Part shown: in pieces, positions 190-28,089 of the stretch | Layout of the letters: each line of letters opens with the position of its first letter | How positions within the stretch are numbered: position 1 is the stretch's first letter | NCBI GenBank assembly: GCA_035084275.1 | Contig: CM068749.1 | Location: 9,114,001-9,178,000 of the forward strand | Reading direction: 5' to 3' | Length of the DNA stretch: 64,000 bases | Origin: Hydrolagus colliei | Lineage: Eukaryota | Position numbers and translations under genes: made by a program | Notes under the pieces: generated by a model | What the model saw: the letters and a program-made list of their open reading frames with translations, nothing else | Databases searched by the model: none | Told to the model about the DNA's origin: nothing

Positions 190-1842
190 AGGAAATATGA
201 GTGGAGCTCTCCAGGCAGCGCTGAAAAATCCCCCAACTAACACAAAGAATCAGGCAGTTAAGGTAAGGCTGCATTATCTTTATATGAGCCATGACTGGCT
301 GTTTCGTGCAGGTATTGGATGGCTATCAAAAAACGAAATTGAAGATTTAAAATTGGACTGTTTTCCCTACAATATGTTCAAAGTTTAAAAACTAATGAAA
401 ATCTTAGTTATTAGTTCCAATCTGCCAAACAGCAGCTGGCATTCTGTCCATTTGATGTTACAGTATCTTATTCGGATATCATTGAGTTTAAAATCTGGTT
501 TGCCTGAGTCAATGCATGCTTTAAATGTAAAGGCAAGAAGAGTTGGAGTGAAGCTATGAATGGTCCAATAGAATTACTGCCCTCACATAGATTCAATCTA
601 TTCATGATTTGGCAGCACATTGTGGCATGGAGAACTTCACTGTTCATATGAAAAGGTAGACGGGCTCATTAAATTTAATTTGATCAGATACTATTGATTT
701 TGAATGTTTGAATTTTCCAGAGTTTTGGATTGAAATTGAGCACTTTCCATTTCTAGGACCGGGCGGAAAATACTGTTCTGAAGGTTTTGACTTCATTTAA
801 AAGTAACGATATTGAAAAGGCAGTTCAGTCCCTCGACAAGAATAGTGTTGATCTCCTGATGCAGTATGTCTACAAAGGGTTTGAGAAGCCATCGGAAAAC
901 AACAGTGCACATTTACTACTATGGCATGAAAAGGTAAGAGCTGCTTGGTATTCATATATCCATTGATTTCTAATATATTAATCTGCACCATTTAAAGGAA
1001 GGCTCTAGCCTCTGTATTTATTAACAGAATGGTCTTGAAACATTTTATTTTCTAACCATAAGTCAAAATGTTGATTTTTATTCATATTTAGCAGATGGTA
1101 TTGTATATGTACATAGTGAGTGACAATCCCAAATCATGGATGTTGTCTCAACAATGCAAGTGGTTCTCCTGAGATTTCCTACCAACTTTTTTTCAATATC
1201 TGTTGGCCTAGCTCAACAGATATTGTTGGGCTTGAACCCACAACTTTCTGACTCAAAGGCAAGTCTAAGCTGAAACTGCAATGCAAGTGGGCTACAGTAC
1301 AGGAGAGACGGAGGGTGGGGGGAATTCATTATCAGAGGTGCTATGCTTTGGATGAGGTGTACATAAAGATCTCATGGCACTACTTGAAAAGAGGAGGGAA
1401 TTTCTCCCAGTGTTTTGGCCAACAATCCCTCAAATAAAATTGTTCACTCATTCCGAGACTGTGGGACATTGCTGTGTGCAAACTGCTGCTTTGTTTAGCC
1501 CAGAAAATACAGTATCTACTTGACAGTATATCCTGTAAAGTGCTTTGAGACATCTCAACAACATAATAAGGCGCTTTAGATTATTATAATATTTCTGTCT
1601 CTGATGAGACTCAACCCAATATCTATAGGAATTACTTTAAAGTGGTTAGTAATTTATACTTCAGTGAGAAACTTAGAGATGCTGGTGGAATATAGATTAG
1701 AGGTGATTTTTCCCTCCAATACTAAACATCTTGGACTCTCTGAACAAATTATTAACTGGATCTTTTGTGTTTTCTTCAGACTTTAGCAGTTGGAGGAGTG
1801 GGAACTGTTGTAAGAGTTCTAACAGCAAGGAAAACAGTTTAA
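190..1842 (+). CDS. ARPC5: Actin-related protein 2/3 complex subunit 5 (p16-Arc), last three coding exons; 5' exon outside the window
   Basis: Exons 190-262, 757-933 and 1780-1842 (TAA) join in frame to ...[24 protein letters not shown]|[59 protein letters not shown]|[20 protein letters not shown]. The two downstream introns are [17 protein letters not shown] and [13 protein letters not shown], plus the NCF2/SMG7 neighbourhood, favour ARPC5 over ARPC5L. Confidence 0.95.
1335..1590 (+). mobile_element. DeuSINE-type SINE (Deu domain plus L2-like tail), degraded
   Basis: Contains GGATGAG...AAAGATCTCATGGCACTA...TTCTCCCAGTGTTTTGGCCAACA...GTGGGACATTGCTGTGTGCAAA, typical of the Deu domain. Related copies at about 9000-9330, 11930-12170, 12740-12965 (-), 14485-14735 (-), 18360-18655, 21730-22120, 34990-35125 (-) and 43180-43365 (-). 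Boundaries approximate. Confidence 0.7.
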
Positions 1843-7082: not shown

Positions 7083-7640
7083 GGAGTCCTGTAGCTCACT
7101 GCAGAACACTTGCCTTACAAGCGAGAGACTTGGGTTCAATTCCAGGCAGGGCAAAACCTTGAGCAAGTTTCCTTACTCCACACCCCTGATAATAATCCCT
7201 GATAATAATCCAGTAATAAATTGATCATCTCAATCCATGACTTTGTGGGCACAGCTGTGCGCAATTCATAGAATCATAGAATTGTAGAATTTTACGGAGC
7301 AAAAGGAGACCATTCAGCCTATCGAGTCTGTGCCAGCTCTTTAAAAAGAGCAATTTAATCCCACTCCCCACTTCCCATTCAGGGCAAAACCTTGGGCAAG
7401 TTTCCTTACTCCACACGCCTGACAATAATCCCTCAAGAAAAAAGCACAATAATAAATTGGCTGCCACGTTTCGCTGGCAAAATATGCAGTCAATTCACTT
7501 TACAGTATCTTCTGTGAAGTGCTTTGAGATGTCTTGAAGACGTGAAAAGCACAATATCAAATGCAAGAATTATGCTATGTCCCACAAACAGTTGTGGATT
7601 GAAGTGACCAGTTTTATTATTGTTTTTTTTCTTTCAGAGC
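7083..7640 (+). mobile_element. Cluster of tRNA(Val)-like-headed SINE pieces with a nested CR1 3' end (7267-7380, minus strand)
   Basis: Head GGAGTCCTGTAGCTCA...CCTTACAAGCGAGAGACTTGGGTTCAATTCC has A/B-box-like motifs. CATAGAATCATAGAAT is the reverse complement of a CR1-type (ATTCTATG)n tail. Confidence 0.7.
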
Positions 7641-7748
7641 TGTAAATGAAGATCCGACTGGTACATTTTCTTGACCCTCACACCAAAGGAATGTAAATAT
7701 TCTCTGATTGAACTGTAACCATCCACACCTATCCTTGCTTGGTGCTTG

Positions 7749-10700
7749 TTAACTATCCAGAATCTCGCTCAATAAGTCACTATTGGCCGAAACCCATTGC
7801 CTGAAGGATTGCAATTCAGGATGCAATTGCAGGCTTAAAGTCCTGTTCATTTTCTGACCTCCTCTCTTCCAGAATTCAAACATATTCCCAAGGTCCTGAG
7901 AGCCTGCTCCGCCAAACTTCTCCACAAAGTTTCTGACCGAAATCTGTCACAAAGGGAAAACAAAAGTAAAACTTTGTTCAGAGCATTGAACCAAAAAGGA
8001 CCAGGTTGGGTGGGGTGAGTGGGTCAGTGAGCAAAGTATTGCTTTGTGTGGATTCATGCTGTTAGCATTTGGTTTAAAGAATACAGTAAAACTTGTTCAA
8101 AGCTGATCTATATAAATCCTACAATTACCTAAGTCTCCCCCAATTTAACTTGGGGCCAATCTGCCAAAGCCATGTTGAATTTACTGCAACTTATGCGAGT
8201 TTCACATAACTTTGGATAAGTCATATTAAATGTCTGGTCCCAACTGGTATGATTTATGTGAGGTTTACAAGAACTACAAAATTACATTTTTGGAGTGCCT
8301 TTCATGTCGGGAGAATGTTTACTGTACCATGTTTGTAACACCACAACATAGAAAGTCATAGCACAGACATAAGCCATTTGGCCCAACTGGTCTATTATAC
8401 TTCACATGAGCCTTCACAATAACAACTTGTATTTACATAGGGATTTTCATGTTTTATATTTTTAAAAGTTTCAAAGGATTAACTATTGGTAAGGGAAGAA
8501 AAGAGGGGCTGGCGATTTTAAAATGGTGAGATTCCTCCACATCTGTGTGATTTTTTAATCTGGTCTTCACAATGTGTTAACCTATGCTTTGAATTACAAT
8601 AACAAAATTACATTGATAGAGTGCCTTTCATGTCCCAAGGAGCTGAATTACAAGGATTCTGTTTAGATTCTTGGTGTTTTAAGTATTTGTTCTCTGTCTG
8701 TTGGGTGTTTTTTTTCTTCCAGTCTTTAGTTGTCCATCCATAAAACTTGGCAACAAAATCTGGACTAATATATCAACTGATAGTTCAGAATGTGCTGAGA
8801 GCAGATAGGATCTGTGCTTTTATGCGTCAATAAAATACCAGCAACTTGCTCTTTGTCAGGTGTTGTTGACAGCTTTCTCTACTTTACAATACCCATGTCA
8901 GAAACATCCAGAAATGTGCATCATCCTGGATCAGCTCATACCCTCTCAGTGACAAGGTTTAGGGGTTGAGGACTTTGAACACATGTAGTCCAGACTGACA
9001 CTAATGCAGTTATGGGGGTGGCACTGCAATGTTGAAGGTAAACATCCTTTGGATGAGACATTAAACTGAAGTCCCACCTGTCTAATTAATGGAAGTTAAA
9101 GATTGTTTGGCACTATTCAAAGGAGATTGGAATTTGTCCCTGTGTCCTGGCCAATAATCCTCACATAAAAATTAATCATTCAGTTTGTCTCTGTGGGATA
9201 CTGTGTTACTGTGTGCAAACTAGCTGCAGAATTTGCCTGCAAAATAGAGTCACCATACTTTTACAGTATATCCTGACTTCCTGAAATTCCATCCTATTTG
9301 AGAAGAGCTATAAATTCAAGTTGTTGTAATGTGCTCTGAATTTTGTCACAACACTTAACGTGGAAATTCTGTGATCATCTTTGAGATGGTTTGACAACAG
9401 GATAAGGCACCGTATGAAAATGCAAAGATGAATTTGTTTTGACTGTTGTTTTCCTAAGGTGGTTATACCCGGGAATCCTTAATCCTTTTGGGGTCCAGGT
9501 GGTGGCTGAGGATTTGTCCGTATTCCTGGATTTGCAGCCTATCAGCAGACAGAAAGCAGCTCTTGCCTATCCAGCGCTTGGGGGCTTTAAATAAGGCTGT
9601 CACGATCGGACCAATCTGCTTGATGCTTATTCCGTCCATGGCTGTATCTCCCATTGGGATAGCTGTAAGCAATCCACAAGTTATAAGAAGCACACCATTG
9701 ACAACTTGGACATTTCCACTTGGCACCTCATACAATAACAACATAATAATAATAATCCTTGCATTTGATATAGTGCTTTTTTATGTCTTCTAGATGTCTC
9801 AAAGTGCTTCACAGAATATACTCTAAAGTGAATCTACTATATAATCGTGGGCGAAATGCAGCAACCAATTGTGCACAGCAGTGTCCCACAAACTGTCGTG
9901 GATTGAAATTACCAATTTATTATTGGGGGGATTTTCTTGATGGATTATTATCAGGTGTGTAGAGCAAGGAAACTTGCCGAACATTTCGTCTTGCCTGGAA
10001 TTGAACCCAGGTCTCTCACTTCCAAAGTGAATACTCTAACCACTGAGCTATAGGACTCCGCTTGTATTTACATTGCGTTTCACACATGGCATGGGATCTT
10101 TGAACAGGCAGACGAGACCTCAGTTTAATGTCTCATCCTCTGAAAGTGCAACAGCCCATCTCCAGCACAGCATTCAAATGTCAAGTCCTGATGTGTGGCT
10201 TGAACCTACAATGTTCTCACTCAGAGGCGAGAGACCTTTCACTGCACCAGGCTGACAACAATGACTGAATTGAAGGGAATTGTTTCCATGTCGTATCGCT
10301 CTATGTAACACTTTGTAAACTACTCACCAATTTTATAAGTGTCTTTTCCAGCTGGGGTTGGTTTGAAAGTTGTAAGAAAGTTTTCAAAGTAAAAGGGAAC
10401 AATTATCTCAGTCTTGGGCAAAGCGATTTCATTCATGTAGTCATTAATGCAAGCCTTTGCATCCATATGCCTCGCTGGCAGGCTGTACTTCCTGTGGACG
10501 TGCTGGGCTCCATTGAACACAACTTGCTTGATGTTGTGCTTCTTGCACATGTCAGCGATCCTGTAGCCTTGTTGGATTTCAGTCTGTGAATTCATAATAA
10601 TACTCTATTATTCATTATTATTATTAATCAGTAATGACATGAATGAAGAGAGAAAACCTTGCCAGGTCTTATTAAAACTAATAAAACAACACAAGCATTC

Positions 10701-11394
10701 GCCTACAAATTGAAACCAAACCACTTTACAACGTATCCTATGAAGCGCTTTGAGGCATCACAATGACTTGTCATTTCTTTCTCTCCACACAGCAACCATT
10801 TGTCTTTTTATTTCACCCACAAAATACAGTTAATTCAAATGGCACTTTATCCTGTGAAATGCTTTGTGACTTCTCAACGACATGATGAGCTACTTATATG
10901 AAATGCATTATTATTACTATTTGCTCAGTGCCATTCTACACAGAAACTGTTCATTTTAACATGTTGGTTCAAAACACGGTCTTTACTGCAAAAAATCTGC
11001 AAAGCGCTTTGAGACGTTTTGACACTTAAGAAAAAATGACCAGACTTTCAAGCAAGCGAATAAAAACACGGCTGTTGTACTTCAGCTTTATAAGCCTTTG
11101 GGAAATCAACATTAAAGTGGTGCGACTGACCCTCAGAGGATCTGTGGTGCTGAAATCTGTATGGGTGACAACAAAGCACTTGTGTACATCCCTCAGAGCA
11201 GAGTCGATGGTTGAGGTTTGGTTGTAATCCACGGCCACAGTCTCTGCCCCGGAGGCCTGCAAGTGCCGAGCAGCTGGGTTGGTTAATTCACTCACTGCCG
11301 CGCGCAGTTTAAAGTTGCCGTCCTGGAGCAAGGCAGAGGCAACCTCATTGCCTTCGCTGCTATCAGCGCCAAACACCACTACCATCTCAGCCAT
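7749..11394 (-). CDS. NmrA-like family protein (NMRAL1/HSCARG-related atypical SDR, Rossmann fold), 4 coding exons, 302 aa
   Basis: Exons 11394-11131 (MAEMVVVFGADSSEG...DPLR), 10583-10328 (TEIQQGYRIAD...HMDAK...PFYFENFL...YKI), 9662-9469 (AIPMGDTAMDGISIKQIGP...KDSR) and 7943-7749 (ISVRNF...DLGNMFEFW...SFRQWV...ILDS*). All introns are GT-AG with phases 0/1/0, giving 909 nt with no internal stop. Colinear with NMRAL1 motifs (VVVFG..G, H.D.K, P.YFEN, P.GD..MDG.S...GP, DL.NMF.F, QW). The last exon is missing from the ORF track. Confidence 0.92.
9747..10060 (-). mobile_element. Near-full-length tRNA-headed SINE in an intron of the NmrA-like gene
   Basis: Read on the minus strand: GGAGTCCTATAGCTCAGTGGTTAGAG... 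head through to an (ATT)n tail. Confidence 0.8.
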
Positions 11395-11772
11395 CCTCTG
11401 GGGAAGAAAGAAAGAAGATTGACATAAGAGGTTCGGATTTTTTGGTGGGGTCAGTCGGCTGTCTGACACAAGTGGAGACCTATCACCATGTTTAAGACTG
11501 TTAAAGCAACTGAGAGTTACACCCAATAATAATCCTTCCATTCGATATAGAGCCTTATCACATTGTTGAGACTTCTCAAGGCACTTCACAGAATACTGCA
11601 AAATGAATTGACTGTATATTTTGTGGGCAAAGCATGCAAACCAATTGCATACAGCAATGTCCCACAAACAGTCGTGGATTGAGTGACCACATTATTATTA
11701 TCATTTTCTTTTGAAGGGATTATTACCCCCGGAAAAGCGATCTGCGAATCGAGTTCCATGTATAACACCTAC

Positions 11773-12716
11773 GTTTGGAAATTTTCCTGGATGTGAAATA
11801 GAATGAATTCACTCTCCCAAGAACAGTGCACCCTTCTTATAGAAGTCCAGAGAGAATTAGCCATAGGTTGGTAACAGCCCAGGCTTGGGGTACCCAGAGT
11901 GTGCATGGGTCACGGCTGGAGTTTAACATTTGGTGTTTTAGTTGGTTGTGGATTCAAGTTCACGGGCGAGGCTGACACTTCAAACCTGTGTTTGTGCATT
12001 GTCACCCATTAGATGAAACACTAAACCAAACTGCCTTTTGCCTGTTCAGGGGGACATTCAAGATACAGTACCTTGGCAGTTTTTGAAAGAGAAAGGGGAG
12101 TTTCTCCCGGTGTCATGGCCAACAACCCTCATTTAATGGCAAATTGGCTACTGTGTTTGCCTACAAATAACCCAATAAAATCCCATAACGTGTTTTGATT
12201 TCAAGGTAAGGCACTATATCAAATATAGGTTAATATTATTCATATCATAATAATAGTATTTATTTTTGCCATGAACCTTCTCTGTCTCTAGGCAAAATTG
12301 CATACTGTTGCATATACAAAAAAAAAACCTCATTCCAGATTTGCATGGGGAGGAAGGGGATGTGGTGAGACCCATTGAACTGGACAGAGATTGCAGTGGA
12401 TTCAAACCTTTTTTTAAAAAAAAATTAGAGGCGAAATCATGTGTACATTATCATACATTTGCTCCAAAACTCACCGTGACACTGACTTGCTTTGTGTCTT
12501 TGCTAACTCGGAATCTGTTGTTACCGGGGCTACTTGGGTGCCACTTCCTGAACTATTGCTTGTTTCCACTGTAGTCAGGGAAACAGCAAGTCAAAGCCAG
12601 ATTTCCAAGACATTAGCCAATGCATCGACTGCACGCATTGCTGGGGGTGTGCTGTTATTAGACCCAATGCATCAGCTACAGTTTGCATACATCAGTGTCT
12701 CACAGACAGCCATGGA
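11773..12716. promoter_or_regulatory. Putative divergent promoter region shared by the NmrA-like gene and NCF2
   Basis: Minus strand: TATAAGAAG (11841-11833) and a donor AAC|GTAGGT at 11773, a candidate non-coding exon 1; the coding exon has an acceptor 3 nt before its ATG. Plus strand: ETS/PU.1-type CACTTCCTG (12542-12550) and donor GA|GTAAGT at 12716, a candidate NCF2 5' exon; acceptor TTTCAG ends at 13332. Confidence 0.4.
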
Positions 12717-13364
12717 GTAAGTGAGCAATTTTATTTGGAGAATTGTTGGCCAGGACACCGGGAGATACTTTTAGGGAAATGATTTACCTTTATAAACTTG
12801 TCTTAATAATCTTAATGATCCACTTGAACAGACAGGTGGGACCGGGATTTAATGTTTTACCCAAAGGATGGCACCTCCCCCACCAAACCCCAATACTGTA
12901 TTGAAATGTCATCTTAGACTATGTTCTGATGTGGGGCTTGAACCCACAACTTTATGACTCAGTCAAAGGGTGCAGACAGATTTAAAAGGGAGACAGGGCC
13001 TTAGTTTAACGTCTTATCTGAAGGACTTCTAGCTCTCCTCTAGCTCTCTCATGCTTCGCAGGAAGATAAATGTGCAAAATTCTATAATCCAGGCCTTTTC
13101 AAATGCCAAGCAATCATCGACTCGTGACTTTATTATGCAATGATAGTGGCTGACAGTTTCCCGTACATTGTAACTGTGGTTCATTCCTAGTTATGATCAC
13201 ATATCCTGTAATGATTTTGTCACTTTTCGGTCAGGGTAGGAACCCATTTGAAAAAAAGAGGTAGTTTATATTGGCCATTATCACTGCATTGGTAAGGAGT
13301 TTGCTGCCGAAAGCTTCGGTTCCACCTTTCAGCCTGTGTGCAAGTTTGACACGCAAAGTTAACC

Positions 13365-16300
13365 ATGGGTTTAATGGAGACCTTAAAGCTATGGGATGAA
13401 GGGATCGCTGAGGCAGACCAGGGAGAATGGGCAACTGCACTGAAGATATTTACTTCAATAGACGAGGCCAGCTCCAAAATCTGTTTCAACATTGGCTGCC
13501 TGCACCTTTCACTGGGAGATCTGCAGGAGGCTCAGAAAGTAAGTGAGTTGGAAGGAATTTTGTTTGTGTGCTACAAGCCCATTCTCTGCAGAACTATTGC
13601 GGCCACCTGAAACTGAGTCCTGTAGCGTATTGGTGAGAGCGCTCACCTCACAAGCGAGAAGACTGGGTTCAATTCCTGGGCAGGGCAAAACCTTGGGCAG
13701 GTTTTCTTACTTCACACGCCTTTGTCTAAGCGCTCTGAGATGCCGTCCTTCGTGGAGGGCGCTATATAAATCATTGTTGTTGTTGTTGTTGTTGTCTACC
13801 TATCAGTAAGTAAGAACCCAGTTAGTCGATTGGAGGATCACTAACTGTAATAAACCCTTGCGAAAAAATGTGAGGGTGGGTGTGAGTATGGAGAGCAGTG
13901 AGAATTTTTTGTTTTGTTGTATGCATGTTCCGACGTGAAAGGCGCTGTACAGAAGGAATTTTGTTGTTGTTGTGTTTTTTTTCATGTTATAAAAGATTGT
14001 GAAACCGCTACAGCTGATGCAATAGTAATCCTTGCATTTTAATATCGTGCTTTTTGCATCTTCTAGATGTCTCAAAGCGTTTCACAAAATAGACTGTAAA
14101 GAGAATTCACTGCATATTTGTGGGCGAAACGCGGCAGCCGATTGTGCACAGCAGGGTCCCACAAACAGTCGTGGATTGAGCGACCAAATTATTATTTTAT
14201 TTTTCTCTTGAGGGATTATTGTCGAGTGTGTGGAGTAAGGAAACTTGCCCAAGGTTTCGCCCTGATGTGTTTTAATGTGAAGAATACCTAAAGCTGCCAA
14301 CATGTCCAGTCTGGAGTTTTCAAGTCACAAAAGTTTTCAGGTTGCTGCAAACAGTGTGTAACAATTGCACAAGTCACTGAGTTTAGTTATGTAACCGTCT
14401 TGTGGACACTGCAGAAACACCCGAAGCCTCGTTCATTTCCATCCACAAATCCAACCCGTGATATTCAATTTGGGGGGGGGGGGCATTTGTTGGCCAGGAC
14501 ACTAGGAGAAACTCCTTTCTCTTTTTGAATAGTGTCATGGGATGTTTAATGTTCACCTGAACTGGTAAACGGGACCTTGGTTTAACATCTCATTCAAAGG
14601 ACGGCATCTCCGACAGTCATGCAGCAGACTTCCAACGCTGGAAAGTGAGCCTGGACTTCAAAGTCCTGACATGGGATTTGAACCCATAACCTTCTGACTC
14701 AGAGATGAGAGTGCTACCAACTGAGCCAGCCTGACATGCAAAACAGTGTTGTCCTAACTGAAATGGAGGAAATTGTATATTGTGTCAATTTGTGTGGACT
14801 GATCTCTTTCCCCCTCTCTCTCTCTCTCCATTTCCAGGAATTTGATAAGAGCATCTGTAAGGATGAGCATTTGGCAGTGGCTTTCTATCAACGTGGGATA
14901 ACTTTCTTCAAAATTGAAAAGTAAGCTGCTTCTGCACATTGGAGAGGTTTGTGTGAGCTAGGTGTGCCATGCACTACTTCATTGCTTGTCAGACAAACAG
15001 GCTGAGCACTGCACTGAGCTGGGCTAAGGAAAGCTCTACCTTTTGACCCTCAAGAATTGCATTCAGATTGATTTTGCTTAGAGAGGATGGAGATGTTCTC
15101 TTGAACGTTTGGTTAGAGACATGGTTGTGTGAGGGACAAATTATATTTTCGGGCAGGACAATAAATCACATTGGCTTTGCCCGCCAGTCCAGGGTGTACA
15201 ATTCTCCAAAACTGATTCTCATTTTTATTTGGTTTCCATGCCGAACAATGTGGGCGATATCATTAAGTTAGGAGGTATTTTGTTATTCAAAATTTCAACA
15301 AAAAATTATAATTTTGAGGCAAAGGTAAAACTTGTTGAAGGAAAATCAATCGAATCAGATTATTTTGGAAAATAATTTTGGAAGTAGGACATTCAGCCCA
15401 ATGCAATGTTGAAGGATGACATTCGACCCACACTCCACACGCCTCTGTTTACCTTGCAGTAAGTAGGAACCCAGGTGTTCCAGGGGTAATTACCCTTCAA
15501 GAAAATTAACTTGGTCACTCAGTCTACGACTGTTTATGGGAAACTGCGGTGTGCAATTGACTGCCATGTTTCACGCATAAAATACAGTCAATTCACTTTA
15601 CAGTATATTCTGTGAAGCACTTTGAGCTGTCATGAAGATGTGTTAAGGCATGATACCAAATGCAAGGATTATTATTAAGAATTATTTCATTTGATATTTC
15701 CTTAACATCCGCTTAATCTATAGTGATTTTGAAAATGCCAAAAGTATCCCTGGAATACTGAAGCCATTTCCCTCCTGTTTTCCTTTTCTGTTGCCTTCCA
15801 GGTATGAAGAAGCCATTAGAGATTTTAAGGACGCATTTCATCAACTTAGAGGGAATTTACTGATAGACTACCACCAGCTAGGCCTGAGATACAAGCTGTT
15901 TGCTTGTGAGGTACATGGATTTATGAATTGTTTGTATTTTCATGCTGACAGAAACTCTTTCATGTCCTTTTATTTTATTCATGTTAATTATGTGCTCCCA
16001 CAAGTCACCAGTGGTAGTCCTGGAGCTCAATAGTGAGAGCACTCGCCTTACAAGCGAGAGACCTGGGTTCGTTTCAAGGCAGGGCAAAACCTTGGGCAAG
16101 TTTCCTTACTCCACATGCCTAATAATAAGCCCTCAAAAATAAAACAATAAATTGGTCATTTCAATCCACGACTGTGAGACACTGCTTTGCACAATTGGCT
16201 GCCGCGTTTCACCCACAAATACACAGTCAATTCGCTTTACAGTATATTCTGTGAAGCGCTTTGAGACGTCTACAAGATATAAAAAAGGCAATATTAAATG

Positions 16301-19300
16301 CAAAGATTATTATCATTATTCTTATTAAGTCAATCTAGCTGAACCAGTTGGGAAATTTCTTTCTTATGAACACATTAGATGTTTGCCCATTGTAACTGGG
16401 CAAGCCCGAACAGGTGACAAACTCACATTGAGTGGAGCAAATTTATGATGTGGCTGACGGATTCGAACAGCACTAAAATTTACCACATGAACAATATATT
16501 AAAGGCCTCCAATTTCACTGAACTGGTTTAGTCTGGCATGGTCAAATTAACTTGCTATAAAGTTTAAAGCAGTAATTTCAAGTCCAATGCTCAAAGATGT
16601 TCCTGGTTTTTAATTTTGGGTTGTTGAAGTTTTCCTACTGAAAATTCAGGACATTTGAATCTTTAACAATGTAAACTGGGTTAAATAATAATAATCCTTG
16701 ATTTTACATAGCGCCTTATCGTGTCGTTGAGACGAGTCAAAGCACTTTACAGAATATAGTGTGAAGTGGATTGACTCTGTCTTTTGTGCGCAAAACCTGG
16801 CAGCCAATTGTGCATAGCAATGTCCCTTAAACAGTGATGGAGTTTTTTTCAATCCTGTGAAGCTCTTTGAGACGACCGCCAAAAATGAAAGTCACAGTAT
16901 CAAATGCAAGGATTACTATTTTGTTTAGCCTTAACCACAGTTAATGTTGTCTTGACTGCCTGTTTTCCCAGGTGCTCCAAAACCAGGCACTGGCACATGC
17001 CCAGCTACAGGCATGGACTGAGGCGGAGGAGGTGTTGAAGAATGCTTTGGGTTTCAAAACCGAGCCCAAGCATAACTTTGTGGATGAGGCATTGGGAGCT
17101 GTTCGGGTATTGGCTTCTTTTGTACATTTGCAGGGTTCCTCTGCACATTGTCCTGCTCTCCTTGCATCCGCCTAAGGTGCTGAAGGACTATCATTGCAAT
17201 TTGTACCATTATGTTTGCAGCTTTGCATATCTGACCAAACTGTCTTGACTAATCTAGCAAATAAAACCTACTTGACCTTATATTGCACTTTAATGCAGAG
17301 TAGCATCTTGAAGTGCTGAACAATGATACAGGTTTATGCTGAGCCAACCTCATACTGATCTTCCTTTTCCATTCGCTCCATGTCCCTGACCTGCCATTCT
17401 TCCATTAGCAGTCTGGCCTTCAGTCTTTCTGCCCCCATCCTCTGGAACTCCACCTTGCCCATTACCCCAGCCCGCAGATCAGCTGCAAAACCCTCATTGT
17501 CCAGCACCTTGGGATGTCCTCCTGAAGTGAAAGATGCTATATACATTTTGGGGATAAAAGCGGAGGAGTGGGACTAGTTGGTAGCTCTTTCAAAAAGCCG
17601 GCAGAGGCAAGATGGGCCATATAGCCTCCATTTGCGCTGTAAAATTCTATGATTCTATACTAAATACAATTTGTTGATGTTGTTTCCCACTAGAGGAAAT
17701 ATGTATTTTTAATCATAAAACTGTTCAGCACTGCTCATTAAAAATAACCCTCCCCCATCTTGTCCCTCCTATGTACAAGGGCAGGAATATAAATACTGCA
17801 CTCTGATCCCTGTTCACAGAACCAGAAGCTCTTTGAACTATTGCAGCTGCCGAAAGGGAAGTTCTTCAGACCAAAGAAAACCAAAGTGGCCCAATTGGAA
17901 AAACAGGATTTTCTGGGAGAAGCCAAGGTACCAGCTGGAATTTCAATGCTTACTGGTGCTAAAAGAAGAGTGGATGCGCTGCTGGACTCTAAACACTAAA
18001 TGCTTTCCAATAGATATGCTATCAGCTGTCTCCTCCAAGGCCGGTCTCAAGACCTTCCTGTTTGATCGTGCCTTCTGCTGCCCTCCCACCTCTCTCCCTC
18101 CCCTAACCTGCTCATCCCCCGTGCTTGGGTCATGACCCCTGACCGTTCAGCGCCTTGGGACATCCCCCTGACGTGAAAGGCGCTCTATAAATATAATTTT
18201 GTTGTTGTTGTTGTTGTTGCATGATTTAATGGGATTCTTTCAGGAAGTAGTTAAGTTATTTGATGGGAGCTTTCAAGTGGAGACAATTTACACTACTTTG
18301 GCTTTAAGAATGCTTGATAAGGTTCCTCGTATGAGACCTTTAGAGAATGTTGAAGTCCATATTCCTTCTTTGGATGAGATGTTAAACAGAGGTCCCCCGG
18401 TTCAGTTTAAAGATCCTGAGGCATTATTCGAAAAGAGAGTTTCTCTCTCCCAGTGTCTTGACCAACAGATACACCCAAAATAAAATTGATCACTCACTCC
18501 ATGGCTATTTGTGGGTCACTTTTGTGTGCAGACTGGCTGCTGCATTTTGCCCACAAAATACAGTCAATGCATTTTCCAGTATATCCAGTGAAGCGTTTTT
18601 GGACATCTCCACAAAAAGATGATATTCTATAATAAATGCAAGGATTCTTGTTAATATGGCAATGGATGAAAAGTTGGCTAGTTGAATTGAACTGGTTCAG
18701 TGATAGAAAGTGGAGGGTGTGATTGGGAAAGACTTGCTGGGTTCCACGGAGAGTTATCTGAATTCCTTAATCTTCAGCTCTAGTTTTCCATTTCTTTCTG
18801 TTCCAGGTGGTGGCGTCGATCATTGACCATGATGAATTCTCGGGCTTTGCACCTCTGCAGCCTCCGGTAGCTTTTAGTTTCTGAATTCTTTAAGACGGTT
18901 GAGAACCTGACTTTTCACGTTTCAGGCCATCAGCATTGAATCTACCTGGTGGAGAGACTGTGTTTTCTCCAGAGTGTAACTTCTTGAGATGTATCTTCTA
19001 AGACTAAGATACCCAGCTAAAATTGGTCTTTCACACCAAGTCTATTTATGGGATATTGCTGTGCGCCTATTGGGTGCCTCGTTTGCCTACAAAATACACA
19101 GTCACTACGATCTACACTAAATCCTTTGAAGCACTTTGAGATGTACCCCCGAAGTGTTGAGGCATTATAATCAAATGCGTGTTTACTGTATTATATCATA
19201 CGTGAAAGCTATTGATGATAAGCAAGGTTTTTTTTATATTGAAGAAATGTGAATTACTGTCTGAACAAAAAGCTTAGTGGATGAATGTCTGATTAGGCCA

Positions 19301-22300
19301 TAGGTATAACTGAATGCGAGTGTGTCCTCTGTAGAGAATGGAACTTTGAAAAATTATAGGAAGATGTCAGAATCCTGTCCCTTGTCTGCTTAGTCAGATG
19401 TTGTAATTCTATACATACGCAGTGGACCGCGGCTCTCCAGTGCAAAGCCTAATGTTTCCCTGCAACTGTGGTTATCGCTTCATCACATCTTCAATTCTAT
19501 CTTAACAGGCTCCAGAATCCGTCTCCCAAATGAAACTTCCAGAGATACTGAAGTAAGTCTCAGTGACCCTCTTTCAAAAGGCACAAGCGGAAAACGGGCA
19601 TCACTCCACGCAGAGTCTCGTTGTTGTGATTGTCTGTGTGTCTGTGTCTCTCTCTCTATGTGTTTGTGGGTGTCTCTATGTGAGTATGTCTCTCTCTGTG
19701 TCTCTGAGTCCGTGTGTCCGTCTCTCTCTGTGAGTGCGTGTGTGTGTCTCTCTCTGTCTGTGTCTGTGTGTATGTGTCTTGCTTTGGGTGTCTGTTTCTG
19801 TGTGAGATGCTGGGCCCTGAGAGGCAGGAGGTGGTGAGCTCCTCTAGCCCCTCAGTCAGGACACTGGTCCAGAGTGTCTGCTTCTTGGTGGATCTCCAGA
19901 TGTTTCTAAGACTTCTCGTTCTTGTCGCAGTTCCCTGCAGGGAGAACTTTACCGGGTCCTGTTTAACTTCATCCCTAAAGGTGAACAGGAACTGAGAGTG
20001 CAGTCGGGTAACATAGTCAGTGTCCTGGAGAAAGGAGATGACAGTTGGGCGACAATCATGTTTAACAACAAGGTGAGTGCCTGAGCCAGATCGGAGCTCT
20101 GCTCCTTGAAAGGCAGCAATGAGGCCAGGTATTAGCCTGGCTCAGTTAGCAGCAGCAGCAGCAGCAGCAGCAACAAAATTATATTTGCATAGCACCTTCC
20201 CCGAGGCGCTGACCAGCACACTCGTCTCTGAAATAGATAGTAATTGGCTGCCGTGTTTTGCCTTGAAAAGATGAGGGAATTTCTCTCAGTGCCAGGCCAG
20301 CAATCCAACAATCCCCCTGATTCACGTCATGGCGATCTGTGGGACTTGTCTGTGGGACTGTGCCGTGCGCAGGTTGATTGAGCCACATTCACCCATAAAG
20401 TACACGGTCACCGCACTTTGCATAACATCCCGTGACCTTCACAACGTGTGAGATGCTGATATCAAATGCAGTTATTACAGTAATAATGACAACTTCTTCA
20501 TATCAGCTTCGTATCATCCCAGTTACTGTAACTGCATTTTGGAAATCGCTTCTTGCAGGAAGAGGAAGCAGCTTTTTAATGTGTGAAACGCAACCCGTGC
20601 TCAATACCCTGGTTTGCATTTTCAGTTCCTCTTTCTGTGTGTAGTTCCCTCGGATGAACTAGTCCACACTTTTGAAACCCCGCCAGTTGGGCTGACTCAA
20701 ATCGCACGCCCAATTCAGGGCAAGGAGGTTGTTGAGGGTCTGAAACTTGAAATCGTGGCTAGGTTTTTACACTCCAGATACACGCCAGAAATATAAATAA
20801 AATGATCTGATTTGCAAGGAAGTGGCATGATTTTCTGGTGATACTTATACCCGTAGAGCCTCTCTCTCTTCACTGAGACGCTGATGATATCCCAGGATGG
20901 ACTTTCAGAAATTGGGTGGGAAAAGGCTGAAGACCTGACTGCTGGGCTGGAATGTTGGGCTGGGCAAGGGCGGGGACATGGAGAAGGCCAGAGATTGTGG
21001 AGCATAGGGAGAGGACAGTTGGGAAAGTTTTCATCGGTCACAGATGTAGGGAAGAGCAAGACAATGGAGGGCTTTAAAGGTCTTTATGACAGGGCTCCTT
21101 GGTGAGATTGTATTACTCTAATTTAGCCTCTTTGAGACGGGTGACAATATCATCTATATTAGTGGCTGATCCATACCAATCGATACTAGTTTTTGGTATT
21201 TAACTGTTTTTCCACTCTCCTGCTAGGTTGGCTTGGTCCCTCTCAACTACCTAGAGCAACTGGAGCCTTTGAAGGTAAAAAAAAGAGCAAGCATGCTGAA
21301 TAACTGGTTTGGATTTTATTGAAAAAAATACCTTGTTTGGGTGCGTTGTGATATACAGAGTGCAGCTGATTTATTTTGCACTTAAAGAGATGTCACTGTT
21401 GGATAATTAAGGATTAATTATCGATGGGTTATTTTCCCGTTCCCATCGGGCAGCGGAATTTCTGTTCTGGAAGTGGATTGCAGTGCGGTGCAGTGTCAGG
21501 GTGATCGACTTCCACTTCACATTGGCTTGGATGCTTTATGGCGGAATGCAAGGAGTTTATTAAGAAATCCCTCAGATTAGACGCTGCCATTTAAGCAGAG
21601 GTAGAGCTGCACAGCACCCAGTGTCTTTTCTCCCAAAGGTGTGGTGATTGGATTAGCAGCCATACTGAGAAACAATGAGCTTCATCCAAACTCGCAGTGC
21701 AGCCTGACAATCCAGCATTACATATTTGGAGGTGATTTCAGGATGAAACGTTAAGTGAAGGTCTTGGGTATCTGTCTGTTCAGGTGGACGTTAGAGATCC
21801 CACGCAATACTCAAAAAGAGAAGTTTTTTTTTCCTCCAATGTCCAATTCACCAGATAAAGTTGGTCAGTCACCTCATGACCGTTTGTAGGAGATTGCTGT
21901 GTGCATTCACCTACAAAACACACAGTCATTATACTTAAGTGTAAATCCTGTGAAGTGCTTTGAGATGTCTCGCTGTCTTAATATGGTTGCCCACAGTCAC
22001 TTCACAGTATGTGCTGTGAGATGCGTTGGGATGTTCTCCCGACGTGAAAGATGCCATGCAAAATGTAAAAATAATCATCTTTATTTATATTATATCAAAT
22101 ACAAGCATTATTATTGTTAAAAGTTGGGCAACATTGCTCTGAGACACAAAGGCAACCTCTCCCACTTAACAATAAGAAAATATTTATTTTTCAAATGTAT
22201 TTTTAGGAATCATGAATTGTCTTTCTCCAAAAATTATTTGTCTTTTTCGATTAGGAAGTAGAATCTTTGTCTCCAAAAATCCCAGCACCTCCCACCGCAA

Positions 22301-25300
22301 CAGCCCCAGAGAAACCAAGCTTGAAGGTGACAGGTAGGAGCTGTCTCTCGCCTGCTCTTTGCTGTGACTTTTGGATGTACAATGGGTTGGAAGTTGCGCA
22401 TATCAAACACAAAACGGTTGCAAATTGGAAAACATCAAATCCCGACTGTAGAACGGGGAAAGAACAGGGCAATGGGTATCGCATGACTAGAGGATGTGCA
22501 ATTGTGGGAGCAAGCAGTGAAAATCACAATACAGTTTGCTTCAGTGGGGACTTGCTGAGTTTGACATAATGGCTTTTCTTAGAATTTAATGGAACTATTC
22601 ACACAATGGCTTTTGTCTTTCAGGAGCAAATCCAATCACAGGCAAATCCCAACAGACAGGGGAACCTGCACACAAGGTTCAGGTAAGGAGGCCAAAGTGT
22701 ATCCATAAATAGGACCGTTGTATTGTCGTCCCCCCGACATGAAAGGTGCTCTACAAATGTAATTTTGGTGTTATTGTTGTATCGTGTCCGGCCTTGACTA
22801 GGCTAACTCCCTACACAACGGACCTCCCAAATCTTCCCTCTACAGGCTGGATGAAGGCAGCTTGTTATTGTAGTTGTACCGATGAGCTGTCCCTTGATTG
22901 CACATCTTCCTCCAATTATACTCGTGGAGTAAAACTGGACAGAGAAGGAATACAAAGGCTGTAAAGATAACTGGAGCTGTCAGTGCCCTAAGCTATGTTC
23001 TGGAATTGCTGGCAGCTCAATACACAACGTTGGGAGTGGGTCTATGACAGGTTGCTAATGATTTCTTCTTTGTGAGGCAGCACTGGATGCAACGCACACC
23101 AAAACCTTCCATTGTCAAAGTGCACTTCACGTACACGGTGGCTTTGCGTGTGAAGCCAGGGATAACGCTCAACGAACTGCAGGCTGCTATTTGCAAGAAA
23201 TTCAAACTAACCGAGTGCAGATTTGGTTTGAGGTACGATCAAGGTTTTTCAGATCTTCTCGATGGCTTCATCAAAATAGGAGCTTTTAGAAACATCTTTT
23301 TGTTGTGCTCCTCAGATGAACATATAATAATAATCATAATCCTTGCACATGATATAACACCATATCATGTCATTGAGACATCTCAAAGCGCTTCACAGAA
23401 TATATTGTAAAGCTGTTTGACTGTATCTTGCAGCTGAAACGCAGCAGCCAATTGTGCACAGCGATGTCCCACACACATTCATGGATTGAGTGACCAATTT
23501 ATCATTATTATCGTACATGTTGATTGCATCCTGTGCATAGTAACATTAACTTGCACTTATGCAACCTTTTATACCTGCAAATGAACATCTTGGAATGTTC
23601 CACAAAATACAGTTGATTAGAAATAGAGTGAAACTTTTGATATATAGGCAAACCATGGCAGCTAATGCAACATGAGCAATTCATTCATTAGAATTGGTTA
23701 ACGTGGATTAGAAGGGGAAAGGAATATAAATGAAATTAAATTGAAATACCAGGTTTCTTGAATTAATGATCGCTTTTCACAACCCATAAATAGATGAATT
23801 CCCCGCCACCCACCCCTCCCCTTCTTCTTGCCCAGGTATCCGGAAGCCTATCATAGCTCGCGTATTGGCACGCCACAAGATCACTTATTGAGCAGACTAA
23901 AAATCAAACTAGAGACTGTATGTCTAAATTGGTCTGTGCATTTATTGCCTCAGACATCAGTGAGGTTGACCAGATTTCTTTGCCAAGTTTGAAAACCCAT
24001 AGACTTATCATTAATTTCTCATAACAATGGCATAGCAACTTTCACATTGACTTTGATAAAGTACTATATTTACTGCTTATAAGTTAGGAGGTGATCGATC
24101 AGAAAAGCCGGGTCATTTTATGTGTAAAACGTCACTTAATGACCTTCTATGTGCAACCTGTTTGCTTCATGTCGGAGAATATAATCAATTCTTTACTATC
24201 TCTTATGGTTCTTCCCATCAGTTACAAGGAGAGTGATCAGCTTATTCCCATTACCAATGAAACCAAGATGAAGAATGCGTGGAGTCAGTCCAACAATGGA
24301 CGTATGACAATTTGGTGTAAATATCTGAAGGTAATAGATTCAATACAAAACTAAATTTATAATAGCGGCTTTCACATTGGGATTAAGCATCTGGGAAACG
24401 TACACCAAGCATCTGGCAAACGTACATTGTAAATGAAGTGAGTTTGTAGAAATTGAGAGCCTATTGAAGCTCTGGTCTGAATCTCCCCTACATCTGCATC
24501 ACCCTCATCCCTGCCGAGGTGCAATGTCCTCCAGGGGATCAGTTTCAAAACCTCCAAAGCTTTTACACCATCCTATCTGTGAAATTTTCTCGTCATATAT
24601 CCTAACCCCTCGTTCATCCCTATTCCGATGCCACTTTATAGTCCACCCCCCACCCCGCCCACCCATGCTTCACTTTTGTAAGCTGAACACAAACACACCT
24701 TTGCTCTCTGAAACTCTAATTGAAAACCATCTTCACCTTGCTATTTCAAACCGCTTTCTAAACCCCCTGAAAAATTATTTTGACTATTCTTTGAAACATC
24801 TCTAAATTCCTCTTACATTATTATTCATCTAAATGGGGTAATTATTGACCAGAATAGATTGCCAAAAAGGGTGGGTGAGGCTGATGGTGTTGTGTGGTGT
24901 GGAGGTGGGAAATAGAGGTAATTCAGGAAAGGTTAGATCAAATGGGCTGAAAGGCTTTGTTTATCCAAACCAATCTTGTGATGATCCAGGTAGTGGCACT
25001 ATATGACTACGAGACCTCAGAACCTGACGATCTGCTCTTTCAAGAGGGTGACATCATCCACATTTTAGCACAAGGTAAGAATGAAGGAATTGCTCGCCTA
25101 AGATTTCAAATCGAAAGAGGATGGAAGCGTAGCATGTGTATTACATGTCTGTTCTTTCAGTTGAATTTCTAAAACAGATTAAAAAATACAGAACAACAGT
25201 GTTCCAGTCATAGATCGGGTGACCATATTATTATTAATTTTTTTTGAAGAAATTATTACCCCAGGAAAAGCAATCTGCTAATTGACTAATGACCGGTTCC

Positions 25301-25685
25301 TATTTTACTGCAAAATAAACAGAGGAAGGTGGAGTAAGGAAACCTACCCAAAAATCGAACTTGGGTCCTCTTGCTTGTGAGGCGAGTGCTCTAACCTCTA
25401 TGCTACAGAATTCCCAGTGTACGCATATTTGCCAAACATCCTTTTTTTTTAGCAACACTTGGGTAGTATTGACAGTGGATTCTGCAGTGCATTCTGAAAG
25501 GTATATTTCTCTCTCATTCTCCAGCTTGCTCATTTCAATGTTGTTTCAGTGACTTGATTTTCTTCAATGTCTCCACAGTGAATCAGGACTGGCTTGAAGG
25601 GCAATGCAATGAAAACATTGGTATCTTCCCGTCAGTCTTCGTCAAAGAGTTGAGCATCGTCGATACATCAGATGCAAACATTTAA
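13365..25685 (+). CDS. NCF2: Neutrophil cytosolic factor 2 (p67phox, NADPH oxidase activator): TPR, activation domain, SH3, PB1, SH3; about 497 aa
   Basis: Exons 13365-13538, 14838-14920, 15802-15910, 16972-17106, 17820-17927, 18807-18866, 19509-19552, 19931-20072, 21227-21274, 22255-22333, 22624-22682, 23081-23232, 24222-24330, 24990-25074 and 25579-25685 (TAA). All GT-AG and phase-consistent (1494 nt). Motifs: [46 protein letters not shown], two SH3 domains, PB1 VKVHFTYTV. An intact first SH3 and the synteny argue for NCF2 rather than NOXA1. Confidence 0.96.
13614..13865 (+). mobile_element. tRNA-headed SINE with a nested ~65-nt LINE-tail insertion (13727-13795)
   Basis: tRNA-like head (CTCACAA loop, GGTTCAATTCC B box). 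The insertion is flanked by a duplicated TTGTCTA. Confidence 0.75.
14025..14265 (-). mobile_element. SINE of the same family, lacking its head, inverted relative to the 13614 copy
   Basis: Reverse-strand match to the family core and tail. Confidence 0.75.
16014..16322 (+). mobile_element. Full-length tRNA(Val)-like-headed SINE
   Basis: Head with CTTACAA loop and GGTTCG B box, family core, and L2-like stem-loop tail ending in (ATT)n. Further copies or fragments at about 11525-11750, 15430-15675, 23330-23510, 25230-25410, 29540-29650, 34760-34885, 36750-37012 and 62470-62925. Confidence 0.8.
17547..17660 (+). mobile_element. CR1-type LINE/SINE 3' terminus
   Basis: GATGGGCCATATAGCCTCC...CTGTAAAATTCTATGATTCTAT tail. 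Related ends at about 7267-7380 (-), 32480-32605 (-) and 57760-57960 (-). Confidence 0.65.
19633..19803. repeat. Degenerate (TG)/(TC) microsatellite
   Basis: Alternating TG/TC low-complexity run in NCF2 intron 7. Confidence 0.9.
20148..20172. repeat. (AGC)n trinucleotide repeat, probably the tail of a retroposon fragment
   Basis: About 8 AGC units followed by a reverse-strand L2-tail-like sequence. Confidence 0.8.
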
Positions 25686-26573
25686 ATTTGTGCTGGATTT
25701 TCCTTCTCCCAGCCAGAAATGTACCAAGTCGGACATCAAAGCAGCTTGGATTTAGCTGTAATTTTATTACTCGATGCTCGCTTGATGTCAAAAACGCAAA
25801 CCAAATTTAGGCAAATAAATTATTGGCAGTACTTTGCACTAGGTAACTGATGTGCTTTTCTGGCTCGTCAGATTGAATTCAAATTCGGCAGAAAACTTGA
25901 GAGAAATTCCACTTAAATGTAGATTCTCCTATTTATGTAGCATTTTAAGAGTCCAACATTTAAAAGTTAAGGCAGTATTCAAGGCACTTAAAAAAAAAAG
26001 CCAAATTCTGGATGCTAAAATGCGCAGTGAATCTAAACCCAGGACAAATTTCTCCACACACATTTTTCTGAAAACAGGCTATTTTAAACAGTTTAATGGC
26101 ATTGGGATTTGCCTGATATTCAAATGACTTTAGGTGAGATATTTTGAGTGTAGTAACTGATGGGTAAGGTGGATGGATTACTGGCGCACATCAAAATTGT
26201 TACACCAAGATGCTAATAGAATATAATGTACAGTATTTCAGTCAAGCTACAGCTGTGACAATTTTAAACCTTATTGTGGGACCCTGCCTCGCTTGGAGGG
26301 TGCTACATAAATGCAAGTTGTTGTTGTTGTAATGAATTAAGGTATTGGGCCCTACTTTATGTATATTTCCCAAATATCCAAGGTCTATTTATTCACCTTA
26401 TATAGAGTTCAGAGCCGATGGTCAGATTTACAATGGGAGAACAAAACGCAACAGACCAGGTTTGTGAATATTAGAATTTTAAGAGCATTATCAAATAGAA
26501 AAGATTCAGTCTGCACATTGAGGTAATGTATTATATTGATACCCATGCGAATGTGTCAGTTATTCAATATCAG

Positions 26574-26714
26574 AATAAAATATTTTATAAAAATTTCTGT
26601 TCATTTGATTGTTTTGCAGCTTTGCAAAAAGGTTATTCGATTAATTCCGGATTTCCAAGCAGACACTATTCTTTGTGAAAGTATCAACAGCTTTATCTTT
26701 GCTCTTGTAATAAA
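26574..26714 (+). terminator. Candidate NCF2 polyadenylation signals
   Basis: AATAAA at 26574-26579 and 26709-26714, about 0.9-1.0 kb after the stop codon. Confidence 0.45.
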
Positions 26715-27072
26715 AGCATTGTTATTCCTCATTCTCATGCTAGATCTGGAATTCCACAATACAGAATCTGCTCCCCTTTAATTTTGACTGGAAATCTCCA
26801 GCTGTAAAATGGACAACTTTATTCAGTGAACCTTACAGTTGATTAATTAAGGAATCCAGTGAGTAAATAATGGCGATGTCTTTATAGCGAATCTCCTCTC
26901 GAAAAGGAGCTTTGGGATGTGCTTAATGTTAGGTTTTGGAAAGTATGCACCACCTTTTGAGAATTATACACATTTTGCACTTGTGAGTTTTTCAACTAGG
27001 AGTTCATCATTAGAAAAAGACATGCAGAGAAACAAGCATCAAACAAATACACAGAATTAGAACATGGTTTCA

Positions 27073-27078
27073 TTTATT
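27073..27078 (-). terminator. Candidate distal SMG7 polyadenylation signal
   Basis: Minus-strand AATAAA followed about 20 nt later by TGTGTATTTGTTTGATGCTTGTTT, a GU/U-rich downstream element. Confidence 0.65.
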
Positions 27079-28037
27079 GAAGGCAAAGCTGATTCCAGCA
27101 ATTGCTGCACAAGTTCTTACACAAAAAGGACATGAACACAAAAGCTTAGAACATAAACCTTTTCCCCGAGGGCCCTGTACTCTTTCTTGCAGTGCTCCTG
27201 TTCCCCAGAAATATAATCTATTCTGAACAGTGTACATGCATGCAGGTTGTGAACAACTTGCTCTGGTGCTTTTGTTAACCTTCTAGGACTTGTCGGCTCA
27301 GTGGGAAGGAAGACCTGGGGCCAGGCGATTCAGTACAAGAGTAGATTTAGAGATGTGTGACCAGAGCAGAATGGTGGAATGTTTCTGTGGGCAGGGTGTT
27401 GAGCTGTACTTGTGATGCAGAGTGCTGGTTTGCAGTGGGTGGGTTGGGAAAAGGGAGGGTCGTCGTCTCATTAAAAAAATTGCTTCCCATCTTAAAGAGG
27501 CTGTTGCATTCTAGTTAGCAGATGGCAATTTTCTATGGGAAAATTCTAGTTTCTTTAGTCTCCCCCCACTTTTCCATCCTAGCGTCAGGTTATTATCGCC
27601 CTGGTTTGAATTGTCCTAGTACCTGTCTGAGATACATACTTTAGTGATGTGCCAAGCAGCATGTGATCTTAGTTCCAAACAAACTTCACAGTGACACACA
27701 CAATGTGACTCCTTCACCTGAAAATAACAAACATTCTTTTCCCACACAGTTCCAGCACGTTTCTGCACCAGAAATCCACTGTAAGAGTTTTTACAAGCAG
27801 ATTTTGATTACAACAACCCGAGGAAGGTTATAAACACACAGTCCAAATGGAGCCTTACATACCCTACATTCTGATCTTTCCACAAAGCTCAAAAGGACAA
27901 ATGTTTGTTACATTCAACAGCCTGAATATTACTTATGATGAGCAGTGAATGACCCATGCTTTTTAATCCCCTCCCCACCGTTTTAATGGGAGCAGTACAT
28001 GGGCACACGCAGTAAGACACACCCACAGTACAAGTGG

Positions 28038-28089
28038 CCCACCCACCCACCCACCCACTCGCTCTTTCACCCACCCACTCACTCACTGA
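28038..28089. repeat. (CCCA)n/(CACT)n tetranucleotide repeat in the SMG7 3' UTR
   Basis: Seen directly; reads (GGGU)n on the SMG7 sense strand. Confidence 0.85.

Follow-up and report, generated by a model that had tools for sequence, protein, structure and literature searches.

The window analysed here, a 64,000-nucleotide stretch of the Hydrolagus colliei genome, contains an intact NmrA-like gene. Databases name this gene NMRAL1, yet by its sequence and phylogenetic placement it is not the NMRAL1/HSCARG ortholog. The loop that grips NADP is altered in every jawed-vertebrate copy examined, so the protein likely works without a cofactor, and we lean modestly towards the role of a binding protein independent of cofactor, and away from that of a redox sensor.

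The gene lies on the minus strand and comprises four coding exons with GT/AG junctions and an open frame of 302 aa, whose product is identical to a Callorhinchus milii protein at 269 of 302 positions. Its ATG is at 11394, and a splice acceptor just ahead of it points to an upstream non-coding exon. The coding exons and the two altered cofactor-site segments are as follows.

11131..11394, minus strand: coding exon 1, codons 1-88; PF05368 38.9 bits (cut-off 27); HSCARG match E 9e-10
11350..11370, minus strand: Gly-rich loop G-A-D-S-S-E-G, codons 9-15; family Thr replaced by Asp11, middle Gly by Ser12
11287..11295, minus strand: end of strand 2, V-S-E, codons 34-36, at HSCARG Thr36-Arg37-Asn38
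10328..10583, minus strand: coding exon 2, codons 89-174; GT/AG junctions; HMDAK at 10455-10469, YFENF at 10377-10391
9469..9662, minus strand: coding exon 3, codons 174-238
7749..7943, minus strand: coding exon 4, codons 239-302 and stop; holds the conserved DLGNMFEFW helix

The segments VVVFGADSSEG and KLRAAVSELT correspond to codons 5-15 and 29-38, and exon 2 carries HMDAK (residues 127-131), YFENF (residues 153-157) and a His/Arg-rich stretch. Against PF05368 (NmrA-like, atypical SDR fold; curated cut-off 27) the C. milii ortholog scores 114.3 bits and exon 1 38.9. No second or processed copy was found in a search of the animal's own genome, the ESM Atlas returned generic NmrA clusters only, and NCBIfam gave no match for the subfamily member P0002.

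A protein search was made with the C. milii protein as query, and the best 120 of 242 matches were listed. Among these 120, identity to the query is 46-87% from sharks to salamanders and then drops to 41% or less. The close matches among the same 120 of 242 come from sharks, rays, paddlefish, bichir, gar, bowfin, eels, bonefish, tarpon, coelacanth, lungfish, caecilians and salamanders, and none comes from frogs, most teleosts, birds or mammals. The absence of the paralog from these last lineages is suggestive only, because a single word-seeded search lies behind it. A profile search of 1.84 billion representatives, in which 20 of the 150 matches listed were put to species, added amphioxus, sea cucumber, urchin, molluscs, an annelid, a brachiopod, a nemertean, tunicates, an acoel and a turtle copy of degenerate appearance; neither lamprey nor hagfish is among the species so identified, the 20 being a minority of the representatives. 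The turtle copies (P0256, a cluster of Terrapene and Platysternon) look degenerate, which suggests that the paralog got as far as the amniote stem before it decayed there. A link to urea retention, based on the binding of argininosuccinate synthetase by HSCARG, was considered and dropped: the gene occurs in basal ray-finned fishes, which excrete ammonia, and has no close frog or mammal match among the best 120 of 242.

A careful tree was built from 47 rows. It unites the 12 vertebrate members in one clade (100/100) on a stem of 0.54, nests this clade with 15 invertebrate rows (100/99), and sets eight canonical vertebrate NMRAL1/NMRAL2-type rows apart (99/98); the acoel row is long and its placement unsure. 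A quicker tree of 98 rows gave the same split, with support of 94 for the subfamily, and the subfamily protein tree agrees with the species tree. Bowfin (Amia) and Pleurodeles each have one gene in each of the two clades. The separate clades, with these two species in both, point to a paralog of bilaterian age; as placed by the tree, the gene is one whose split from the NMRAL1/NMRAL2 line predates the bilaterian radiation, and its earlier treatment as a rewired NMRAL1 gives way to membership of this separate subfamily. The literature searched, which took in few subscription papers, yielded no description of the paralog or its subfamily and no characterisation of the invertebrate members; the paralog is conserved and apparently undescribed.

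Cofactor-site residues were counted in 26 vertebrate subfamily rows (the window protein and P0002-P0026), 16 invertebrate subfamily rows, 122 canonical vertebrate rows and 21 others. The 26 do not include P0001 (an alternative model for C. milii), the duplicate model from bichir, a bonefish sequence that is partial, a tarpon fragment lacking its N-terminus, or the turtle row; where the N-terminus is present, these excluded rows look just as non-canonical. The canonical 122 are mostly frog paralogs (best 120 of 4808), and their rows are not independent. Alignment to human HSCARG PDB chains runs in ungapped register across the loop and strand 2, and bears out the residue changes reported in the preliminary description: in the loop, HSCARG Thr13, Gly14 and Gln16 become Asp11, Ser12 and Glu14, and at the end of strand 2, Thr36, Arg37 and Asn38 become Val34, Ser35 and Glu36. 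The full fingerprint of GxxGxxG, loop Thr/Ser and Thr-Arg is present in 0/26 vertebrate subfamily rows, compared with 5/16 invertebrate subfamily, 120/122 canonical and 17/21 other rows, and the changes at Thr13 and at Thr36-Arg37 extend across the clade.

At the Thr13 column the vertebrate subfamily has Asp in 20 rows, Glu in five and Gly in one (n = 26), with the loop Thr kept in none, and the loop net charge is zero or below in 25/26. Asp or Glu at this column (25/26) compares with 1/122 canonical vertebrate rows, 0/16 and 0/21 of the invertebrate rows, 0/80 distant, largely metagenomic rows and 0/81 other representatives with filled columns (of 88); eight of those 81 have Val at position 36. 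The Thr36 column is hydrophobic in all 26 rows (Val 18, Leu 4, Phe 3, Ala 1), the Arg37 column holds Gln 11, Arg 6, Ser 4 and others (Arg or Lys in 7/26), and no vertebrate subfamily row has the Thr-Arg pair. The middle Gly column (Gly14) is occupied by Ser 6, Lys 5, Glu 4, Arg 4, Gly 3 and others (n = 26; Lys or Arg 9/26), the Gly rows including C. milii, and GxxGxxG is retained by C. milii and bichir; the first Gly is Glu or Ser in 4/26. Because the middle Gly and Arg37 positions vary freely, the Gly-to-Ser change, genuine in the window, is incidental and not a feature of the clade. The Asn38-to-Glu change is likewise real in the window but no departure from the canon, since position 38 is normally acidic in canonical vertebrate rows (Asp 118/122). 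Judged from these alignments, the informative changes are Thr13-to-acid and the loss of the Thr36-Arg37 pair, and the pattern is one of site relaxation and not of rewiring to a new fixed motif, with the exception of Thr-to-Asp/Glu.

Seven positions are invariant in the 26 rows (human numbering): Gly17, Thr79, Glu90, Gly94, Lys133, Pro153 and Glu157. In window numbering, Lys131 is present in 26/26 and His127 in 23/26, so that the catalytic Tyr of YxxxK is missing and its Lys retained. HMDAK and YFENF are kept in the window, as first noted, but YFEN is not invariant in the clade (Tyr 19/26, Asn 12/26). Among the invertebrate subfamily rows, 10/16 keep the loop Thr/Ser and 0/16 have Asp/Glu there. 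Degenerate Gly loops have also arisen independently in P0253 and P0257 (Styela, Ciona), P0248 (oyster cluster) and P0254 (acoel), and the tunicate proteins P0253 and P0257 carry an insertion of ~17-19 residues in the loop. The degeneration of the loop in oyster, tunicate and acoel members indicates that the subfamily repeatedly tolerates its loss.

The preliminary description proposed that NADPH binding was lost or shifted to NAD(H). A shift, in which Asp11 would read the adenine ribose hydroxyls and exclude a 2'-phosphate, is improbable. It would fit the conservation of the loop Asp/Glu, the third Gly and Lys131 (25/26, 26/26 and 26/26), and SQD1, an NAD-binding SDR, reportedly has Asp at the same loop position. 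However, an acid immediately following strand 2 is required for NAD preference (PMC2792337), and this column is hydrophobic throughout the clade. Glu36 sits two residues later, where canonical NADP binders also carry Asp; the middle Gly is free and fast, the first Gly is itself replaced in four rows, and KstA11, solved with NAD, has a canonical loop and Arg. The hydrophobic column and the canonical loop of KstA11 therefore leave the NAD(H) shift unsupported. The other half of the proposal, loss of the NADPH site, is supported, and more strongly than the window sequence alone could show, the canonical fingerprint being missing from all 26 rows of a retained protein.

NADP can be served by a basic residue of the Gly segment or of the loop following strand 2 (PMC2792337). 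Weaker NADP(H) binding, with the phosphate served by basic loop residues or Arg37 in a low-affinity sensor, would draw on the basic residues counted above at position 37 (7/26) and at the middle Gly (9/26), on the intact GxxGxxG of C. milii and bichir, and on the tolerance of NmrA for non-Gly loop residues. We regard it as quite improbable: the window protein lacks a basic residue at both positions and carries two acids in its loop, and the basic residues present in part of the clade are not fixed in position. The Arg37 and middle-Gly basic rows (6/26 and 9/26) do count against a fully cofactor-free protein, as does the conservation of Asp/Glu at position 11, which looks like function and not mere drift. 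Retention of Lys131, the ribose-binding Lys of the SDR motif, leaves partial nucleotide binding open, and the invariance of Thr77, Glu90, Gly94, Pro151, Glu155 and the third Gly, with His127 in 23/26, weighs in the same direction. KstA11 binds NAD with Val at position 36, and fungal NmrA binds NAD and NADP with non-Gly loop residues (PDB titles 1k6x, 1ti7, 1xgk); single departures from the canonical site therefore need not abolish binding.

Site rates were compared between the clade and 26 canonical rows, using a list of cofactor-contact columns. The 11 adenosine/pyrophosphate-side columns have a mean rate of 1.40 in the clade vs 0.48 in the canonical rows (P 0.005 against resampled random columns, a test that was not blind because the contact list was fixed after the residue counts were seen). 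The middle Gly and Arg37 columns have rates of 2.8 and 2.7 in the clade vs 0.3 and 0.2 in the canonical rows. Nicotinamide-side columns are only partly relaxed (0.58 vs 0.42), with Tyr155, Asn158 and Ser112 relaxed too. Residues 111-150, encoded in exon 2 and including the His/Arg-rich stretch and HMDAK, are the most strongly conserved part of the protein, with a mean identity of 0.79 to 25 orthologs, vs 0.52 for residues 1-60.

The partly retained nicotinamide side could reflect a smaller or different ligand in that half-cleft, such as nicotinamide mononucleotide or riboside, a phosphoribosyl or anionic metabolite, or a metal, the protein being then a sensor or an enzyme. The half-cleft is relined with His and Arg: His116 and Arg119 are invariant and Arg126 is present in 25/26, all unlike canonical NMRAL1, and Lys131, Thr77, Glu155 and Pro151 evolve slowly in the clade (rates 0.17-0.35). 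NmrA-like folds also include the enzymes KstA11, CtdP and SimC7. Against this, all four groups show near-invariance at Lys133, Thr79, Glu90 and Gly94, which may be structural, and the Tyr155 and Asn158 columns are relaxed; another ligand is unlikely on balance.

A structure predicted for the C. milii ortholog (89% identical) from a 70-row alignment has pLDDT 97 and pTM 0.93. Its superposition on HSCARG gives Z 39.6-41.5 across chains, with the R37A form at Z 41.5 and rmsd 1.2 over 289 aligned residues; the fold is intact in this model, but the R37A and NADP-bound forms tie. The alignment behind the model contains canonical relatives, so the model is blind to the bound vs free state. A homodimer prediction for the C. 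milii ortholog, run without an alignment, scored 0.00, a value that carries no weight for or against a dimer.

In the favoured reading, a cofactor-independent binding protein, the acid in place of Thr, the free middle Gly (Lys, Arg, Glu, Ser) and the neutral-to-negative loop would prevent the ADP half of NAD(P)(H) from docking. The HSCARG mutants R37A and Y81A reportedly lose NADPH and are monomers, and NmrA T14V is said to lose dinucleotide binding and keep repression. Falling NADPH strengthens the binding of argininosuccinate synthetase by HSCARG (PMC3999155), so the cofactor-free form would be the active form. The paralog would then remain in the cofactor-free state, which HSCARG enters only as NADPH declines. 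Selection would now act on the partner-binding surface and the cleft (helix 85-101, segment 111-150 and the C-terminal lid), in which case activity would be set by expression and not by redox state. The head-to-head position with NCF2 may indicate phagocyte co-expression; the identity of the partner is the weakest step of this scheme.

The gene shows no stops, frameshifts, broken splice sites or neutral coding variation as signs of a pseudogene. Sequencing run X1, which may be from the source individual and behaves as DNA (introns are covered), differs from the window at seven coding positions, all seven synonymous (P ~5e-4 if neutral, for transitions). The X1 contig 10108-11576, with eight of its nine differences listed, has no listed difference at codons 9-15, and the difference at codon 35 is silent. 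Decay of the gene, with the changes as neutral damage, is accordingly very improbable. Its apparent loss from frogs, most teleosts, birds and mammals (best 120 of 242 matches) and the degenerate-looking turtle copies could be cited for it; the open frame, GT/AG junctions and seven synonymous vs zero replacement differences oppose it, as do the 50-77% identity to C. milii held across sharks, rays, ray-finned fishes, coelacanth, lungfish and amphibians and the concordance of protein and species trees. The choice between functional change and decay, left open at first, falls to change: from its sequence the gene is intact, and its unusual site is a clade-wide state, ~450 million years old. Over the gene (7599-13650), X1 differs at 20/5,151 bases at a depth of ~65, and over NCF2 (14709-29500) at 3 of ~10,400 listed bases at a depth of ~50. 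The seven coding differences cluster in exons 1-2, four of them at CpG, and are more frequent than differences in non-coding sequence; this region may be a divergent haplotype block or contain a collapsed copy.

Searches of the same genome with family PF05368, frog NMRAL1, the C. milii paralog and mammalian NMRAL1 found only the NmrA-like locus and one stretch of contig C14 that is interrupted by two in-frame stops.

G000:C14:3484731-3484898 (L037 4731-4898), minus strand: one-exon relic of canonical NMRAL1/NMRAL2 type, two in-frame stops

The relic is 51% identical to the Xenopus canonical protein over 51 residues (E 4.5e-10), compared with 42% to the NmrA-like paralog (E 1e-4), and no further exons were found in the surrounding 90 kb. 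It sits among Ets, crystallin, TBCC-domain and DnaJ genes, the order at human 3q27 near NMRAL2P. Human NMRAL1 lies between DNAJA3 and HMOX2, and the corresponding heme oxygenase/DnaJ region is on C25, another contig than the NmrA-like gene. There, heme oxygenase and DnaJ (DNAJA3-type) genes face each other ~10 kb apart (G000:C25:4836309-4850000), an orientation that differs from the human order, with no NmrA-like gene between them; tblastn and HMM searches of the 200 kb that surround the heme oxygenase, DnaJ and LRR genes found no canonical gene. An intact canonical NMRAL1 has likely been lost in this genome; the loss is not proven, since the genome search scores the best candidates only and the assembly may be incomplete. 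A relic without an intact copy recalls the loss of NMRAL1 in turtles and often in birds, described along with duplications in frogs in bioRxiv 10.64898/2026.03.05.709825.

Human NMRAL1/HSCARG (PDB 2exx, 2wm3, 2wmd; 3dxf R37A, 3e5m Y81A) shares the full-length fold of the C. milii model (Z 39.6-41.5, rmsd 1.2-1.5, 32% identity), membership of PF05368 and the replacement of catalytic YxxxK by HxxxK. The paralog differs in its separate clade and locus, the changes at Thr13, Gly14, Thr36 and Arg37, a two-residue insertion at the Tyr81-Trp82 loop (T-x-T-D-F), the replacement of Arg151 by Ile/Leu and the His/Arg-rich segment 113-127. NMRAL2 is likewise a second vertebrate NmrA-like gene beside NMRAL1, and PMC11640032 proposes a role for the bovine protein in NO and inflammatory control; unlike the paralog, the mammalian rows that we assigned to NMRAL2 fall inside the canonical clade and keep the fingerprint. 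Aspergillus NmrA (PDB 1k6x, 1ti7, 2vut; Z 32.5) is a non-catalytic SDR-fold regulator that acts via protein binding and has a non-canonical Gly loop, but it is fungal, 18% identical and dinucleotide-binding, taking NAD+ and NADP+ (PMC5122588 and PDB titles). The invertebrate members (amphioxus P0240, echinoderms, molluscs, annelid, brachiopod, nemertean, tunicates, acoel) belong to the same clade (100/99) and share T-x-T-D, Cys101, HxxAKA, IxxYM and Leu229-x-Pro231 with the vertebrate ones, differing in the full fingerprint (5/16), the loop Thr/Ser (10/16) and the loop Asp/Glu (0/16). Fingerprint-bearing invertebrate and fingerprint-less vertebrate members form a natural experiment on whether the NmrA scaffold needs a cofactor, with orthologs to hand from newt, axolotl and shark. 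Should the canonical gene prove truly dead, the chimaera would have to manage with no NADP-binding NmrA sensor.

The NmrA-like gene lies between an ARPC5-type gene and NCF2 (p67phox), head-to-head with the latter. Seven promoter patterns, those for ETS, C/EBP and RUNX among them, were tried on the stretch between the two start codons; expected counts are per pattern and uncorrected.

757..933, plus strand: ARP2/3 p16 subunit exon (ARPC5 type), the neighbour on the other side; PF04699 E 8e-21
11395..13364, no strand: intergenic stretch of the head-to-head pair, 1,970 bases between start codons
12475, minus strand: candidate splice donor; donors of such score occur at 0.42 per strand-kb
12542-12549: candidate ETS-type site; strict pattern, 1 seen vs 0.12 expected
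near 13133: C/EBP-like candidate site, one palindromic site counted twice vs 1.54 expected
two sites, one at 13175: RUNX-like candidates, 2 seen vs 0.43 expected
13365..13538, plus strand: first coding exon of NCF2 (p67phox) or a close paralog; p67phox TPR chains, E 8e-13

From these candidate motifs, a promoter shared between the NmrA-like gene and NCF2 is possible. Bidirectional promoter pairs are marked by co-expression and by divergent start sites no more than ~1 kb apart, and here it is the start codons that are separated by 1,970 bases. HSCARG lowers NADPH oxidase activity through p47phox expression (PMC3602244), which makes the NCF2 neighbourhood suggestive, the myeloid-type motifs being weak evidence; nothing relevant on NCF2 synteny with the NmrA-like gene was found in the literature searched. 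A fuller scenario can be drawn, in which the second jawed-vertebrate NmrA-like gene would be a cofactor-free, always-on counterpart of HSCARG that shares a phagocyte promoter with p67phox and brakes the oxidative burst or NF-kB, chimaeras having kept it and dropped the NADPH sensor, and mammals vice versa; taken whole, it is doubtful and improbable. Near the end of NCF2, a LINE-type reverse-transcriptase frame of 570 open codons occupies 29940-31652 (minus strand; PF00078 E 1e-35). Exon-like ORFs at ~39600-55500 (minus strand), to which Pfam gave no name, are presumably SMG7, completing an ARPC5-NCF2-SMG7 block.
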